IMG/VR virus record: IMGVR_UViG_3300027963_005443
Strand: one strand, 5' to 3'
Length of the DNA: 64,000 bases
Origin: a virus
Positions within the stretch are counted from its first letter, which is position 1, and every line of letters starts with the position of its first letter. This document shows, piece after piece, positions 11,089 to 59,931 of this stretch. A program made the position numbers and the translations under genes. The notes under the pieces are model-generated. The model was not told the origin of the DNA. It did not search any database and saw nothing but the letters and a program-made list of their open reading frames with translations.

Positions 11089-11131
11089 GATTATGCTCCC
11101 AATATTATTTTAATAAAAAACAAATTAATCA

Positions 11132-11175
11132 GAAGGGCAATAATGGGGCTTGGGCGGCACCCATTATTGCCCTTC
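11132..11175 (-). terminator. Intrinsic terminator-like hairpin
   Basis: 16-bp perfect inverted repeat gaagggcaataatggg/cccattattgcccttc with T-rich flanks, just after the 11192 stop. Confidence 0.8.
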
Positions 11176-11191
11176 CTTTTTTAAGAAGTTG

Positions 11192-11587
11192 TCAATAAGA
11201 CAACTTCTTAAGCGTGTTTGCTGCAGAAATAATATCCTCAACAGACATCTTTTCCATAAGACCCTTGACAAGGAGCATCTGCTCAACTACAGGCTGATTG
11301 CTGTAACGATTATGTCCACGGCTCTTCTTCGAAGAAAAACCCTTCTTAGGAGAAACCTTGCGACGGCGCTTTCCAGCGGCCATCACCTTTGATTTCTTGG
11401 GGAGAGGATTCTTCATCCTGCTCTTGGTTACAGAAACGAAGGTACTGGTGACTTCAATACCCTTCTCTGCAAGTTCCTTGACAATTTCAGCGGGCTTTGC
11501 CGAAGGATTCTTGGCAATAAGATCACGGATCATGCTAGTCTTATTGACCTTGGGGGCTTTCTCGGTATTTTCAACACTATCAGTCAT
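11192..11587 (-). CDS. Small basic putative nucleoid/DNA-binding protein (Planctomycete-like family)
   Basis: NKTSMIRDLIAKNPSAKPAEIVKELAEKGIEV...VS..K helical domain, K/R-rich linker; SD aggag. Confidence 0.75.
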   Translation of the reverse strand: MTDSVENTEKAPKVNKTSMIRDLIAKNPSAKPAEIVKELAEKGIEVTSTFVSVTKSRMKNPLPKKSKVMAAGKRRRKVSPKKGFSSKKSRGHNRYSNQPVVEQMLLVKGLMEKMSVEDIISAANTLKKLSY

Positions 11588-13813: not shown

Positions 13814-14194
13814 CTAAAAGAAACAAAAGTTGTTCTCCTCCTCATCATAAGCCTGTTCCACATAATTATTTTTGACTAGATAGACAACAATATTGCTTGC
13901 CAGTCTTACACGAAATAAATCCATAAATTTATTCAGATCTTTTTCTGGAAGGAAATACTTGCCACTCTTTGTTCTTTTGAGATTATCCAAAATTATCGAT
14001 CTAATCTCTTCCTCTGTTATCATTTTCTTGAATTCAACAGATAATGCTTCATCTATATTTATAGTTCTGTTGAATAGAGTTGATAATTGTTGATTCAGAT
14101 CTACAGTAAAATTTCCATTGACATCAAGAGTGATTCTCTTTATTTTTTTAGTTAACTTGTCAATATCAGAGAAGATGATCTTTTTCTTTTTCAT
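13814..14194 (-). CDS. Hypothetical protein
   Basis: First gene after motif copy 4. Confidence 0.65.
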   Translation of the reverse strand: MKKKKIIFSDIDKLTKKIKRITLDVNGNFTVDLNQQLSTLFNRTINIDEALSVEFKKMITEEEIRSIILDNLKRTKSGKYFLPEKDLNKFMDLFRVRLASNIVVYLVKNNYVEQAYDEEENNFCFF

Positions 14195-14265
14195 AAATGC
14201 CTTTCAAAAAAGTTTCTCCCCCCTTCCCATTGTTACACAGGAAGGAGGGAGAAACCAACAAGATG

Positions 14266-14285
14266 GAACCGTACCGGAAGGAAAT
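14266..14285 (-). promoter_or_regulatory. GTTTC-Y5-GGTACGGTT motif, copy 4 (ATTTC variant)
   Basis: atttccttccggtacggttc, about 72 nt upstream of the 14194 ATG. Confidence 0.7.
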
Positions 14286-15132: not shown

Positions 15133-16989
15133 TTACATCCTAAGGCTTATCTGTCTTATGTATCTTGACATAACAGACAGGGACTTCTTGACATCATCTA
15201 AAACAATACTTTTGTTTTTTCCATATAATTTATCGGCGGTGGAGGCAGAAAAAGCATTGTCAATGCCAATGCCGATTATATCTATGGACATTTTTTTACG
15301 ACAAAATTCACAAACACTACCTGTGTGCTTAATGGCAGTACTTCCGCTATAGCCATATCCTTCCGGCTCTCCATCGGAAATAATAAACATAATTCTTTTA
15401 TCAAAAGAAAAAGAATCCTCGGCAAATTTTTTCGCAACATATTTAATGGCATGACCATCAAGATTCTGCTGCTTGGCGTTCATTTCAAAAATACTTGAGG
15501 TATCTTGTTGATCAAAAGTCTTGTAGCAAGTAATATCAATGTCTTCGTTGTTTTCGGTTTGTGCGGTATGTCCATATATACAGACTTTCAAACCGCTGAC
15601 AGATTTCATGGCCTCAGATAAAACAAAAGCAACCTCTTTTGCCAAATTTATTCTATCTCTATCCATCATAGAGCCGCTTTCATCAACTAAAAGACAGATT
15701 GCAATATTTTTCTTAGATTTTATTGTCTTTTCAGAATATATTCTATAGTCGTTATAGGCGAGCTTATGAAGACTGTTTTCATCTATGGCTCCATTCTCAT
15801 GCCCATAATCTTCAACAGAAGAATCTGTATTTCTAAAAAGCAAACACTTGCTTATTGATTGAATTTCTTTCTTAAATTTTTTCAGATACTTCTCTCTCAA
15901 CAATAGATTTTTCTTGTTTTCATTTTTAAAAATAAATTTTGGCTCTAACGGCTCGGCACAATTCTCGTAAATACGACAAACATAATCTTCTTCTTGAGGA
16001 GCTTCTACATCAATAGTTTTTGCCTCAGAAAAACTTTTATTTTTAACTTTATCTCCGAAAAGTTCATTATCTGTTATTTTGTAGTTGTCAAATTCCTCAA
16101 ATTCTGATTCTGACTCATTAGATTCGTCTAAATCTTTTGTGGGTTCTTGACCGAAATTACCGGAATTACCCGAGTTGTTTGAATCTTCCTTAGATTCATC
16201 TGAATCTTTTGTGGATTCTTGATTGCCTGAGTGACTTGAATTCTCTTTGAAATATTTTTTCGCAATATCAACAACTTTTTTACTAAATTCCCATCTTTTG
16301 TCGGCAGGCAAATTATCTATATCAAGAAGTTTTCTGCACTCATCATATATTTCAGAATATTGACCTGGGATCTTTAGGGAATTCTCAGAAAAAAGAATAT
16401 TCCAAGCAAACATAGAAGAAAAACCATCTATGTTGAAAGTACTATTCAATAGACTTTGAATCTTATCCTTCTCTGAAATATAATTTTCTGAATGTTTTAC
16501 AAAGTAGGGAATAAAGCCTTCCCAATTTTTAATTACCTCCTCCCTTGCAACGAACTGCTCTATTGCCTGCCAAATATTCTTGCAAGAATCGAAATCGGAA
16601 CCCTCCCCGACGAGCCTAGACTCAAGTTTAACTTTTTTCCAAGTATTTTTATCAACAGATCTTTTAAGCTGAGTTGCTAATAAAACTTTGCCGGTGAGGG
16701 CATCTACTATGAATTCATCCTTGGAATTAAGAAAATCATCCGGACTGATGAAGATATCATCCTTGCAGACATTGTTGGATTCTTCGCCACTGCTGAACGA
16801 TACCTTTACATTCTTCTCATTTTCTCCATCATTCAAAATAATATTGGCAGATCTATTTAATTGCCTGAGTAGAGATAAGCATTTGTTTTTATTGTCCGTC
16901 TTTCCTTGATCGTCAAAAATTCCTAATTTCTTTGTCCAAATACTAGTGGGAGAGTAATTGACACTATGTTCCGAAGAATTAAATCTCAT
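15133..16989 (-). CDS. vWA-domain protein (CobT/NorD-like MoxR partner)
   Basis: MIDAS LLVDESGSM, ISDGEP, IGIGI; acidic S/N/E linker. Confidence 0.85.
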   Translation of the reverse strand: MRFNSSEHSVNYSPTSIWTKKLGIFDDQGKTDNKNKCLSLLRQLNRSANIILNDGENEKNVKVSFSSGEESNNVCKDDIFISPDDFLNSKDEFIVDALTGKVLLATQLKRSVDKNTWKKVKLESRLVGEGSDFDSCKNIWQAIEQFVAREEVIKNWEGFIPYFVKHSENYISEKDKIQSLLNSTFNIDGFSSMFAWNILFSENSLKIPGQYSEIYDECRKLLDIDNLPADKRWEFSKKVVDIAKKYFKENSSHSGNQESTKDSDESKEDSNNSGNSGNFGQEPTKDLDESNESESEFEEFDNYKITDNELFGDKVKNKSFSEAKTIDVEAPQEEDYVCRIYENCAEPLEPKFIFKNENKKNLLLREKYLKKFKKEIQSISKCLLFRNTDSSVEDYGHENGAIDENSLHKLAYNDYRIYSEKTIKSKKNIAICLLVDESGSMMDRDRINLAKEVAFVLSEAMKSVSGLKVCIYGHTAQTENNEDIDITCYKTFDQQDTSSIFEMNAKQQNLDGHAIKYVAKKFAEDSFSFDKRIMFIISDGEPEGYGYSGSTAIKHTGSVCEFCRKKMSIDIIGIGIDNAFSASTADKLYGKNKSIVLDDVKKSLSVMSRYIRQISLRM

Positions 16990-16990
16990 A

Positions 16991-18070
16991 TCAATTACCC
17001 CACTTTCCTTGAATCATTTGAAGAATGGCGGCTCGCTCACTCTCTCTGCCGCCTTCACTGCTAAAATGATTAGTCAAAGTATATTCAAGTGTTGGAACTC
17101 CACCAACAACAAAATCCTGTGCAATGGATATTAGCTGCCTTGTGCTAACGCTCTTGGAGAACGAAGCATCAAGACCCATATTTTTCTTCCTAATAGTAGT
17201 CGCTATATCCACTAGCTTATTAGCGTCAGACTTTGCAATGCCAGTCCTGCTAATGAGTAGTTGGATTTCCTGGCTGTTTAAGAGATAATTAAGCTCAATG
17301 AGTCTTGGGAATCTATCTTCAAGAGCAAAATCTACGCTGGACGCCCCTGTATATCCTGCACCTTCATTCATGGTTGCAAAAAATACTGTCTTTTTGCCAA
17401 CCTTAATGATATCTCCCTTTTCTTCCAGATAGGTGAATCTCCTATCGTCCAATAATGGAAGCAAAGTATTCAGAACATTTGGAGAAGTTCTATTGATTTC
17501 ATCCAAAAGAATTACATGGCCACCACTTGTGATGCACTTATCAAACTGGCTTTCTTTCCAAAACACAGAACCATCCTTGGCGGTCTTATGACCAAACCAA
17601 TCTCTTGGCTCACGAAGATTAGCACAATCCATAATAAGAATTGGCATATTATATTGTGCCGCATATTGGATGGCCAATTCGGTCTTACCACAACCATGAG
17701 GACCAACTAAGCGAATATTCTGAGGGGATATCTCACTGAGCTTATCCAGATTCTTAAATAGATTGGATACATTTGTCCCAGAGATATAAGAAGGATCGGG
17801 CTTGGGATAAAATACTCCACCCTCGATCCTGCTTTCGCTCAAGACCCTTGATTGAAAAGAACCATCTTTGGGTTCACCGATTTCGTATTCGCCTTCTATC
17901 TCCTCAAAATTTGTAATTTTGGAATTTGCAATAACTCTGAGTTCTTCCGGCGTAACAATCTTATACCAATTGCCATCCGACTTCTGAGTGAATCCACTCT
18001 TGGTTCTTCCACGAGTCTTTTCAATCTTCAAAAGATGATTGTTTTCTTTGTCGGTAAAAATATAGTACAT
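16991..18070 (-). CDS. MoxR/CobS/CbbQ-like AAA+ ATPase
   Basis: Walker A GPHGCGKT, Walker B ILLDEINR, ATMN, EDRF, SVSTRQL. Confidence 0.9.
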   Translation of the reverse strand: MYYIFTDKENNHLLKIEKTRGRTKSGFTQKSDGNWYKIVTPEELRVIANSKITNFEEIEGEYEIGEPKDGSFQSRVLSESRIEGGVFYPKPDPSYISGTNVSNLFKNLDKLSEISPQNIRLVGPHGCGKTELAIQYAAQYNMPILIMDCANLREPRDWFGHKTAKDGSVFWKESQFDKCITSGGHVILLDEINRTSPNVLNTLLPLLDDRRFTYLEEKGDIIKVGKKTVFFATMNEGAGYTGASSVDFALEDRFPRLIELNYLLNSQEIQLLISRTGIAKSDANKLVDIATTIRKKNMGLDASFSKSVSTRQLISIAQDFVVGGVPTLEYTLTNHFSSEGGRESERAAILQMIQGKWGN

Positions 18071-18110
18071 TATTTTGTCCTTTTATTTGTAGTATCGGCC
18101 ATTCCTTGAC

Positions 18111-18130
18111 CAACCGTACCAGAGGGAAAC
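18111..18130 (-). promoter_or_regulatory. GTTTC-Y5-GGTACGGTT motif, copy 5
   Basis: gtttccctctggtacggttg, about 41 nt upstream of the AAA ATG. Confidence 0.8.
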
Positions 18131-18146
18131 TTATGGGATTTATTTC

Positions 18147-18242
18147 TGCCTAGCCGAGGGACCGTGCAAATGAAAATTCTTTGCAAATGAAAAAGATGTC
18201 AGGGGTGGAAATCCTTTCCAAAATCAGTCCCCCGACTAGGCA
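18147..18242 (-). ncRNA. Candidate structured small RNA, about 100 nt
   Basis: 16-bp closing stem with 14 Watson-Crick pairs and 2 mismatches that are G-U only on the minus strand; internal UGGAAA-GGA-UUUCCA hairpin; lies between motif copies 6 and 5. Confidence 0.6.
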
Positions 18243-18250
18243 GTGTGATT

Positions 18251-18270
18251 CAACCGTACCAGAAAGAAAC
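18251..18270 (-). promoter_or_regulatory. GTTTC-Y5-GGTACGGTT motif, copy 6
   Basis: gtttctttctggtacggttg ending 8 nt before the candidate RNA stem. Confidence 0.8.
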
Positions 18271-18293
18271 ATCCCCATTTAGGGGGCTGCGAG

Positions 18294-18321
18294 AAAATAG
18301 CAGATTTTTCAAGCTTGTCAA
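18294..18321 (-). promoter_or_regulatory. Sigma70-type promoter (weak -10)
   Basis: TTGACA-N16-TATTTT upstream of motif copy 6. Confidence 0.45.
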
Positions 18322-18340: not shown

Positions 18341-18610
18341 TCAGGAAGGCTCTTTTTTTACGACCACTGACAGATCTCTTGTTCCTTTTATGAGTCTGTG
18401 CCATTTATCTTTCGGAATAAATATCTGTCCTTTTATTTGAATTGGCAATTCATTATCAAATTGAAACATCCAATCTGTCTCTTCGTTGCATTCGATAATT
18501 CTATCTTCTTTATCATAATGCCATTGTAGATCATCATCTAGCACATTTTCTTTAAAAGTTCTAACAAATGTGTTGGGACTAATCTTTTCTTCTTCAAAAG
18601 GAAATTTCAT
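18341..18610 (-). CDS. Cupin-like conserved phage protein; start reassigned to ATG 18610
   Basis: WHYDKEDR...WMFQFDNELP...IFIPKDKWHRLIKG resembles a cupin barrel. Confidence 0.65.
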   Translation of the reverse strand: MKFPFEEEKISPNTFVRTFKENVLDDDLQWHYDKEDRIIECNEETDWMFQFDNELPIQIKGQIFIPKDKWHRLIKGTRDLSVVVKKEPS

Positions 18611-23524: not shown

Positions 23525-23544
23525 CAACCGTACCAAAAAGAAAC
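23525..23544 (-). promoter_or_regulatory. GTTTC-Y5-GGTACGGTT motif, copy 7
   Basis: gtttctttttggtacggttg, about 53 nt upstream of the ruvB-like ATG. Confidence 0.8.
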
Positions 23545-23579
23545 AAGATCCCCTGAGAATCGGGCACTCAGAACAAGAT

Positions 23580-23607
23580 ATTCTAGGCGTGGTATTTGTG
23601 CTGTCAA
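23580..23607 (-). promoter_or_regulatory. Sigma70-type promoter
   Basis: TTGACA-N16-TAGAAT upstream of motif copy 7. Confidence 0.6.
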
Positions 23608-56637: not shown

Positions 56638-56844
56638 TCAATCCACTCGGAGATCATCGCTTAGATCGCTAGATAAATTTTTATTTTCTAATTCAGATCT
56701 GATTACGGTGACTTCTTGAGGAGCATCTATACCTATACGAACTTTATTGCGGTTGTCAATCCTGACAACGGTGATTTTGATATCGTCGGCACCTGGGCTC
56801 TTCAGAACAATTGTCTCATCCTTTTTTCTACTGAGAACTAGCAT
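56638..56844 (-). CDS. csrA: Carbon storage regulator (CsrA/RsmA)
   Basis: MLVLSRKKDETI...ITVV...KVRIGIDAP.EVTVIRSEL. Confidence 0.92.
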   Translation of the reverse strand: MLVLSRKKDETIVLKSPGADDIKITVVRIDNRNKVRIGIDAPQEVTVIRSELENKNLSSDLSDDLRVD

Positions 56845-56941
56845 ATAATTCCTTTCATCTTAATGTGTAATCTTCCACAATCAATATAGTGTGTCTTTCT
56901 CAAAAATTTGACAAAAAACAAAAAATATAGATAATATAATC

Positions 56942-58383: not shown

Positions 58384-59931
58384 ATGAGCAATAATACATG
58401 TAATTATCTAACTAAAATTATTAATATTCCCGGAGACTGGCGATCCGTATCTTGTTCTTCCAATGGCACGAAAATAGTGTGTATTAAACGGTATGATGGT
58501 TTATACCGCAGCATAGATTCTGGTAGTACATGGGTGAAAAAAATCAATTCCCCAGGTGATGGATTTTCTCATATTTCTGGCGACGGCCAAATAGGAATTT
58601 TTATATCACGCTACACATACAATGATATATATGTATCTCAGGATAGCGGACACACCTGGGTCAATAAACAACCGGGTCTCCCATTACAGGAATTTACTCC
58701 CACAGAATCTAGAATAATTTGCTCATCATATAGTGGAGATACTATTTTTATAGTGCCTGGTCTTTATGCGAGTTTAACAGGTTATTTTTACAAAAGCACA
58801 GATAAAGGAGATACTTGGACAAAAATTACATCGGGATTAGAGCCCTTTACATCCATATCTTGCTCAAGTGATGGTAATACAGTATTGGCTACAGGAAAAT
58901 CCAATGTTTATATAAGTAACGATTCTGGGCTGTCCTGGAGTGTACGCACGTTACCCGTGGCATTAAACGAGCAAGCGGATTGTGAACAATTATATGCTTG
59001 CTGTATGTCAAGCAATGGCACCTCTATGATGGCTTCAATCAGAGAAAAATTCAATGACACCCCATGTAACAGTCAAACAGTTTATGGGTCATTTATTAGT
59101 AGAAACGGCGGGTCTACCTGGGTCGGAGTGGACATAATAGCATCGCAATTAGCTTGTTCAGATGACTTTAGCACAATTTTAGCCGGAGCGGCTGGTTCGT
59201 ATTCATATAGAGTTAGTAAAGATGGGGGAAATTATTGGGCAAATATAATTGATCAAAATAATCCTGATTCTTTCAGGTATATTAGCGGGGTAGATTTAAA
59301 TAGCACAGGAGATAAGCTTTATATATCAGCTAGTGGCGCCAACTCTGTGTATGATAATGAGTTTATATACTCGGTAAATTGCGAAACTTTGCCTCCTATA
59401 CCAGGCACTACAACTACAGCAGCACCTACTACAGCAGCACCTACTACAGCAGCACCTACTACAGCAGCACCTACTACAGCAGCACCTACTACAGCAGCAC
59501 CTACTACAGCAAAAGAAATATGCTTCAGGGTAATTTGTCCAGATAACGATTGCGTATCAAATGTAGTTTGCATACCGGTAAACACTGCCCCGGAGGCACC
59601 GATTGATCACTCTTGTGATTGCATAGATTGTGGAACATGCCCAGAAGCGCCTCCCTTTGTTACTACAGTAGCACCTACAACTACAGTAGCACCTACAACT
59701 ACAGTAGCACCTACAACTACAGTAGCACCTACAACTACAGTAGCACCTACAACTACAGTAGCACCTACAACATCTCCGCCTGCTGGATGTTGTGAGGGGG
59801 CTTGCAACCCAATGGAGAAATGCTGTTCAGATGGCTTTGGCAACTGCGATTGCTGCCCAGAAATTAACTGGGTTTGCTGTCCAGGAAACTTGAATTGTGC
59901 AGCAACCTTGGCCGATTGCCCTCCTCAGTGA
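58384..59931 (+). CDS. BNR/Asp-box propeller protein + TTAAP/TTVAP linkers + shared C-terminal CC module
   Basis: S.DSG.TW repeats; terminal KCCSDGFGNCDCCPEINWVCCP...CAATLADCP. Confidence 0.88.
   Translation: MSNNTCNYLTKIINIPGDWRSVSCSSNGTKIVCIKRYDGLYRSIDSGSTWVKKINSPGDGFSHISGDGQIGIFISRYTYNDIYVSQDSGHTWVNKQPGLPLQEFTPTESRIICSSYSGDTIFIVPGLYASLTGYFYKSTDKGDTWTKITSGLEPFTSISCSSDGNTVLATGKSNVYISNDSGLSWSVRTLPVALNEQADCEQLYACCMSSNGTSMMASIREKFNDTPCNSQTVYGSFISRNGGSTWVGVDIIASQLACSDDFSTILAGAAGSYSYRVSKDGGNYWANIIDQNNPDSFRYISGVDLNSTGDKLYISASGANSVYDNEFIYSVNCETLPPIPGTTTTAAPTTAAPTTAAPTTAAPTTAAPTTAAPTTAKEICFRVICPDNDCVSNVVCIPVNTAPEAPIDHSCDCIDCGTCPEAPPFVTTVAPTTTVAPTTTVAPTTTVAPTTTVAPTTTVAPTTSPPAGCCEGACNPMEKCCSDGFGNCDCCPEINWVCCPGNLNCAATLADCPPQ
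59413..59511. repeat. 15-nt perfect tandem repeat x6+ (TTAAP)
   Basis: actacagcagcacct units. Confidence 0.92.
59662..59769. repeat. 18-nt perfect tandem repeat x6 (TTVAPT)
   Basis: actacagtagcacctaca units. Confidence 0.92.

Follow-up and report, generated by a model that had tools for sequence, protein, structure and literature searches.

The window analysed here, a 64,000-nt stretch of DNA from the IMG/VR virus record IMGVR_UViG_3300027963_005443, contains a 270-nt gap separating two minus-strand genes. The upstream gene (18341-18610), whose stop codon precedes a sigma70-like promoter, encodes an 89-aa protein (called as 89-96 aa in relatives) that is without a match in a Pfam search. The first gene downstream (16991-18070) encodes a 359-aa AAA+ ATPase of the MoxR/CbbQ type, recognised by Pfam AAA_5 (E 7e-23) and CbbQ_C, and the operon's second gene (15133-16989, also minus strand) encodes a VWA protein assigned from a CobT_C domain match; the gene pair is conserved in relatives. 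All features of the gap described below lie on the minus strand, in the order sigma70-like promoter, small hairpin, promoter-like motif (copy 6), three-way-junction RNA element, A/U-rich linker, and the same motif again (copy 5), followed by a further hairpin (hairpin C), a Shine-Dalgarno sequence with GGA, and the AAA start codon at 18070-18068. Twelve distinct variants of this intergenic region are present in freshwater metagenomes, always between the same two genes. The relatives were taken from metagenome and Logan/ENA/JGI assemblies as contigs with an AAA protein 88-100% identical; some of these contigs exceed 300 kb, which marks the phage as an uncultured jumbo phage of freshwater.

The sigma70-like promoter (18294-18321) combines a perfect -35 hexamer, a 16-nt spacer, and a TG-extended -10, and it is kept in 12/12 variants at 86-100% identity among relatives. 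The small hairpin of 4-5 bp between this promoter and motif copy 6 (18273-18286) is retained while its stem sequence varies by lineage, and it would form the 5′ end of a sigma70-driven transcript. The promoter-like motif lies on both flanks of the element, as copy 6 (18251-18270; 95-100% conserved in relatives) and as copy 5 (18111-18130), the latter 41 nt upstream of the AAA gene start. It occurs in 7 copies in the window, all on the minus strand, against 0.01 expected, and these copies precede gene starts by 34-72 nt. Its core, TGnTACGGT, fits an extended -10 element, from which we infer that the motif probably serves as a promoter. The spacer between copy 6 and the stem of the element differs in sequence among variants, yet the distance to the start site predicted from the -10-like hexamer of copy 6 is held, the stem base lying 0-5 nt past that start in 11/12 variants. 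Behind the stem come the conserved A/U-rich linker (18131-18145), motif copy 5 within 17 nt, and the AAA gene start within 76 nt. Hairpin C (18095-18113) has a stem of 4-7 bp and a loop of 5-7 nt with GGA in 12/12 variants, and in L024, L063, and L064 a U-G pair of this hairpin has become U-A. The Shine-Dalgarno sequence of the AAA gene (18077-18082), which also contains GGA, is conserved in 12/12 variants as well.

A second site on the minus strand, 23525-23607, shares with 18251-18321 a strong sigma70-like promoter, a small hairpin, and the phage motif 25-35 nt further on, suggesting that the same genes are served by a host-type and a phage-type promoter in tandem. The idea that a strong 5′ hairpin lies behind every motif copy was rejected on mixed z-scores: such a hairpin accompanies only two copies in the window (14285 and 18270) and a single copy in each of the loci L012 and L016. 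A distant relative, the IMG/VR contig IMGVR_UViG_3300027963_000035 (251 kb; loci L009-L018), carries at least 13 copies of the promoter-like motif ahead of genes, together with a CsrA-like ORF of 36% identity. Few other proteins are common to this contig and the window; the class of motif thus predates the element. Neither an AAA homologue nor a Sigma70_r2 match was found in this contig, but as it is a 50%-complete fragment, their absence carries no weight.

Between the two motif copies, the minus-strand RNA adopts a very stable three-armed fold of 98 bases (18146-18243). As first described, the arms 18147-18162 and 18227-18242, read directly from the sequence, form 14 Watson-Crick pairs out of 16, and the two remaining positions read G-U on the minus strand but C-A on the plus. 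These 16 positions are part of an outer stem of 19 bp, which has one further pair below them and two above (5′ arm 18243-18225, 3′ arm 18164-18146). Folding of the minus strand gives -50.4 kcal/mol (z -8.09), a value equalled by 0/200 shuffles, and the fold of the plus strand is weaker (-36.5 kcal/mol, z -3.72). In sliding 110-nt folds on both strands of the whole 64-kb window (background mean -17.4, sd 6.7), the element is one of three loci that approach -50 kcal/mol. The remaining two differ from it in kind. On the minus strand at 11100-11210, perfect hairpins of 13 and 17 bp, the second with a U-rich tail, follow the stop of the gene 11192-11587 and form a strong double terminator that is almost as stable on the plus strand. 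At 59400-59510, within the gene 58384-59931, a 15-nt unit repeated in tandem in the coding sequence gives a stable antisense fold that is a repeat artefact (z only -2.9).

The junction joins the outer stem to two hairpins. Hairpin A (18206-18220), described earlier from its GGA loop, is supported by folds and pair counts as a 6-bp stem closed by a GGA triloop (18212-18214), and it is the most conserved core of the element; an alternative, longer pairing with 18191-18199 fits the data equally. All other GGA triplets of the element lie inside stems. Further copies of hairpin A do not occur beyond chance, the only nearby partial match being hairpin B (18165-18185), a 6-bp stem found in both the fold and the consensus structure. 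The 12-nt duplication noted in the preliminary description is present in the window (18165-18176 and 18182-18193), but two copies of a 12-mer are within chance and the relatives are without a second full copy. It consists mostly of the arms of hairpin B and a 5-nt loop insertion special to the window's lineage, so that what is conserved at 18165-18185 is a hairpin rather than a repeat.

The three-way junction of outer stem, GGA-loop hairpin, and second hairpin is intact in 9/12 variants, with an outer stem of 16-19 bp among relatives, and the GGA loop of the element is kept in 10/12. The twelfth version (L070/L071) has the window sequence across the element. In the L019 and L059 types, a deletion of ~45 nt has removed hairpin B and the 3′ arm, leaving a single imperfect hairpin with an apical AGGA loop; this lineage is the most abundant, with up to 33 contigs, and keeps the promoters and the operon despite the loss of half the element. 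Smaller differences affect the two hairpins of the junction. The loop of hairpin A is GAA in L074/L075 (two independent contigs), and hairpin A of L069 is maintained via three wobble changes. Hairpin B has a GAAA loop in L062, L073, L074, and L069, shows compensatory double changes at two pairs in L063/L064, and is almost deleted in L024. In L069, counted among the nine full-junction variants, the sigma70-like promoter and the small hairpin are also duplicated in tandem, along with a degenerate fragment of the element, at positions 830-1200 of the locus. The -10 of the proximal promoter copy is mutated, and this stretch is liable to recombine.

Comparison among variants supports the fold and its strand. 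Alignment A2 consists of the nine full-length variants; the truncated L019/L059 types and L070/L071, which is identical to the window in the element, are not rows in it. RNAalifold on this alignment gives the three-way junction. On the minus strand, 98-99% of the cells of its helices are paired (98.9% of 284 cells in A2), a proportion that drops to 35-51% when the partners are slid by 1-3 columns, and the same helices on the plus strand are paired in 86-88% of cells. Changes in the outer stem that affect one side only proceed via wobble pairs in five cases and break a pair in one; one outer-stem position is G-C, G-U, or A-U by lineage, and both G-U pairs of the window are invariant in the nine full-length variants. 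Compensatory changes on both sides are present at four pairs. The covariation score and the number of doubly changed cells are each reached in 0/500 shuffles, while the count of pairs with double changes is, taken alone, within the shuffle range (65/500). Covariation in relatives, which the preliminary description had named as a check, is real but modest, because the double-change pair count is not significant and the sequences are close kin (effective number 1.08). Together, the invariant G-U pairs, the wobble-route changes, and the four compensatory pairs bear out the view that this is a feature of the RNA on the minus strand.

Sequence conservation is equally marked. In the lineage of L062, L073, and L074, the element is 92-94% identical to the window, whereas third codon positions in the adjacent gene reach 63-65%, and motif copy 6 is 100% identical; on this comparison the element is under purifying selection. 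It is also non-coding, because small ORFs over it on either strand are conserved in neither frame nor length among the relatives compared. Folds, consensus structure, pair counts, strand asymmetry, and conservation relative to third codon positions agree that 18146-18243 is a functional non-coding RNA structure of the minus strand.

The structure belongs to no family in Rfam. Searches at the gathering score over the whole window, and at E values up to 10 on slices of 601 and 241 nt, gave no relevant match; the same is true of known riboswitch and ribozyme families, even at E up to 10 on the 241-nt slice. A cobalamin riboswitch, prompted by the CobT-like gene and a partial look-alike of the B12 box in the 5′ arm, was rejected for its wrong size and the lack of a model match, and a hammerhead, prompted by CUGAU at the junction, for an incomplete core and likewise no model match. 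Nor was the element found in GenBank phages or IMG/VR contigs: blastn of 2.3 kb against the GenBank phage collection returned only a 105-nt coding match to Flavobacterium phages, and a scan of IMG/VR for the hairpin A core behind the motif returned no match. A search with covariance model R1 over the window and 33 loci (285 kb of related sequence) returned only the element and weak matches to its truncated form. The element is single-copy and has one genomic context only. It is real and lineage-restricted, and it most likely represents a familiar kind of RNA, the structured phage mRNA leader.

The explanation ranked first, which we regard as probable though by no means secure, is that the element is a structured non-coding 5′ leader of the AAA(MoxR)-VWA operon mRNA, controlling stability or processing in cis. 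Structure, strand, conservation, and fixed context are observed, and onto them a mode of action can be placed that would depend on the putative promoters and predicted transcript ends. Transcripts from the sigma70-like promoter (18321-18294) and/or motif copy 6 (18270-18251) would carry the junction near their 5′ end and those from motif copy 5 (18130-18111) would be without it; the operon mRNA would thus be made with two leader forms. Acting in cis, the junction might be a 5′-proximal stabiliser, or it might be a processing site, its two-turn stem suiting a double-strand RNase such as RNase III, and an RNA-binding protein could dock on the conserved apical GGA-loop hairpin. Which promoters are used, where the transcripts begin and end, and whether the RNA is cleaved are here predicted from sequence.

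A leader acting in cis is preferred to a free small RNA because there is no U-tract, the motif and the AAA start follow close behind, the element is single-copy, and half of it is lost in the commonest lineage. Its first rank reflects the geometry of the stem base, the RNase III-like length of the helix, and an order of features like that of the R sites of phage T7. A stem base 0-5 nt from the predicted start would correspond to the geometry of a 5′-terminal protective stem. Substrates of RNase III typically span two helical turns (PMC1540722), and the 19-bp outer stem, like its 16-19-bp counterparts in relatives, is a helix of about this length. The identity of 92-94% exceeds what a mere stabiliser hairpin would need and hints at a more specific partner; the high sequence constraint, taken with the survival of the GGA apical loop in the truncated form, suggests that this partner is a specific protein. 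Two observations weigh against the leader model. The full junction is dispensable in the L019/L059-type lineage, and in L069 the stem begins right behind the motif, so that part of the stem would be missing from motif-6 transcripts in this variant.

The nearest parallels to such a leader are found in phage T7 and in the ompA leader. The RNase III sites of T7 lie just past phage promoters and ahead of a gene, as is generally known, and the order promoter, hairpin, gene at the present locus recalls them. Stabiliser stems in the ompA and T7 gene 10 leaders lie within a few nucleotides of the transcript 5′ end. The element resembles these two leaders in having a stable stem near a 5′ end, here a predicted one, but differs from their stems in being much larger, branched, and sequence-constrained. 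With R1.1, R1.3, and the other RNase III hairpins of early and late T7 mRNAs it has in common a stable intergenic structure, roughly two helical turns long, within a polycistronic phage RNA (helix rule from PMC1540722), and cleavage, which is only predicted here, would in either case leave a protective hairpin on RNA ends. The T7 R sites are bulged single hairpins, whereas the element is a three-way junction, and there is no sequence relation between them.

A special case of the cis leader, and not its opposite, is a leader that responds to CsrA. The phage does encode CsrA, as stated in the preliminary description: the gene lies at 56641-56844 on the minus strand, 38 kb from the element, and its 68-aa product matches Pfam CsrA (E 6.7e-19). 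Phage or host CsrA bound to the GGAs of hairpin A, hairpin C, and the Shine-Dalgarno sequence would repress or time translation of the AAA and VWA genes, a reading that we consider possible but on balance unlikely. CsrA can bridge two sites 10-63 nt apart, with an optimum above 18 nt, as in the glgC leader (PMC7652899). The loop GGA of hairpin C and the Shine-Dalgarno GGA lie 25 nt apart in 12/12 variants, within this range, and a loop GGA combined with a Shine-Dalgarno GGA is seen in only 2/54 crude gene leaders of the window. These two sites, which lie beyond the coordinates first described, are judging from the sequence the best support for a CsrA-controlled leader. The apical GGA loop is, moreover, the part retained in the truncated lineage.

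The junction itself fits CsrA less well. Selected CsrA ligands mostly have at most 4 pairs and 6-nt loops (PMC7652899), unlike hairpin A with its 6 contiguous pairs and 3-nt loop, and the loop is GAA in the two independent contigs L074/L075. GGA is common in purine-rich leaders, and the long outer stem and hairpin B would have no role if CsrA binding were the function. The comparison with the E. coli glgC leader divides along the same line: both have a loop GGA and a GGA overlapping the Shine-Dalgarno sequence at bridging distance (here the predicted sites of hairpin C and the Shine-Dalgarno), but the large upstream junction is without a counterpart in glgC-type leaders, and its own GGA loop is, unlike those of glgC, a triloop on a 6-bp stem that is lost in one lineage. 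A fuller phage CsrA circuit, in which the junction, hairpin C, and the Shine-Dalgarno sequence together time MoxR-VWA translation, or in which a cut-off junction persists as a CsrA-holding small RNA, is a more speculative proposal to which we give little weight. The leader of the csrA gene is similar by eye, with a GGA by a hairpin loop ~24 nt ahead of a GGA Shine-Dalgarno sequence, and this likeness favours CsrA control of the AAA leader. In full, the csrA leader (56845-56935, minus strand) comprises a sigma70-like promoter, a hairpin whose loop edge carries GGA, and the Shine-Dalgarno sequence at that distance, a layout that, going by these predicted features, is as expected for CsrA autoregulation.

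A CsrA sponge, in contrast, is ruled out. CsrB has about 18-22 CsrA sites (PMC7652899), and for a sponge we looked for about 5-22 GGA motifs, looped or otherwise unpaired; the element shows GGA in one loop only, it is without a terminator, and the Rfam CsrB and Rsm models give no match. It shares with CsrB, CsrC, and RsmX/Y/Z the display of GGA in a hairpin loop, but those RNAs have many loop sites, and the element has one, inside an mRNA leader.

That the element acts in trans as a free small RNA, the core of the preliminary description, is doubtful. Such an RNA would either be transcribed directly from motif copy 6 or be cut from the leader as a stable fragment at the A/U-rich linker 18131-18145, and it would titrate CsrA or act by base pairing. 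The promoter-like motif directly upstream would suit a primary transcript; the very stable fold might let a processing product persist, and the conserved A/U-rich linker behind the stem is in keeping with a cut there. High sequence constraint that extends to the single-stranded stretches would likewise be in keeping with a role in trans. Against this, an intrinsic terminator is absent, one GGA loop compares poorly with the 18-22 sites of CsrB, and the conserved single-stranded stretch has no complementary target elsewhere in the window. The element never occurs outside this leader in the window and the 285 kb of related loci, and the commonest lineage has half of it deleted. A discrete RNA of ~100 nt, as originally envisaged, is thus disfavoured: no U-tract lies behind the stem, a motif copy and the AAA start follow, and the context is a single one.

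The fallback offered in that description, a terminator or attenuator, fares no better and is improbable. Here early transcription from the sigma70-like promoter would halt or pause at the stem, which would insulate the operon, which would later be expressed from motif copy 5 only. A GC-rich 19-bp stem does lie between the upstream promoter pair and the downstream promoter, and the arrangement of promoter then hairpin recurs in the phage, where a classic terminator hairpin separates the motif copy at 14266-14285 from its gene. The U-tract, however, is missing behind the stem in all 12 variants, its place being taken by conserved A-rich sequence, whereas the evident terminators of the window carry 5-7 U. 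A branched interior is unusual for terminators, and a terminator scan of the window did not list the element. The comparison site at 14211-14285 (minus strand) consists of a weaker motif copy and then a 20-bp stem with six U (14256-14211; -35.7 kcal/mol, z -7.6), with the next gene starting at 14194; this promoter-then-terminator arrangement could be an attenuator or give a tiny transcript of ~65 nt.

Least probable is a function at the level of DNA, whether as a palindromic operator, a cruciform, an origin, or a miniature mobile element bounded by terminal inverted repeats: the inverted repeat has 20-bp direct repeats on its flanks, hairpin A is also a DNA palindrome, and deletions and duplications arise readily in the region (L019, L069), but on the opposite strand the invariant G-U pairs and the substitutions allowed only as wobbles become mismatches, palindrome spacing is altered in L019 with the hairpin retained, the element is single-copy, and the supposed direct repeats, which do not abut the inverted repeat, are two of at least 7 gene-upstream motif copies. 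The miniature inverted-repeat mobile element in particular was rejected on its single copy and on flanking repeats that lie 8 and 16 nt from the arms and belong to the 7-copy gene-upstream motif.

Annotation of large uncultured freshwater phages at the RNA level is almost absent, and the locus provides a conserved, strand-specific structured RNA without an Rfam family, set in a tandem promoter architecture of host-type promoter, phage-specific motif, structure, and motif again, and possibly linked to a phage-encoded CsrA. Should the link to CsrA hold, this would be one of the rare phages that carry a global RNA-binding regulator together with the RNA it targets; otherwise, the element would be one more lineage-specific leader structure. 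The locus also offers a concrete handle on the regulation of a widespread phage MoxR-VWA (CobS/CobT-like) gene pair. Homologues of the pair at 15133-18070 are very widespread in freshwater phage-like contigs, with 162 proteins at E below 1e-100, and most of them are ~490 aa long with an extra N-terminal region that the window's phage does not have.
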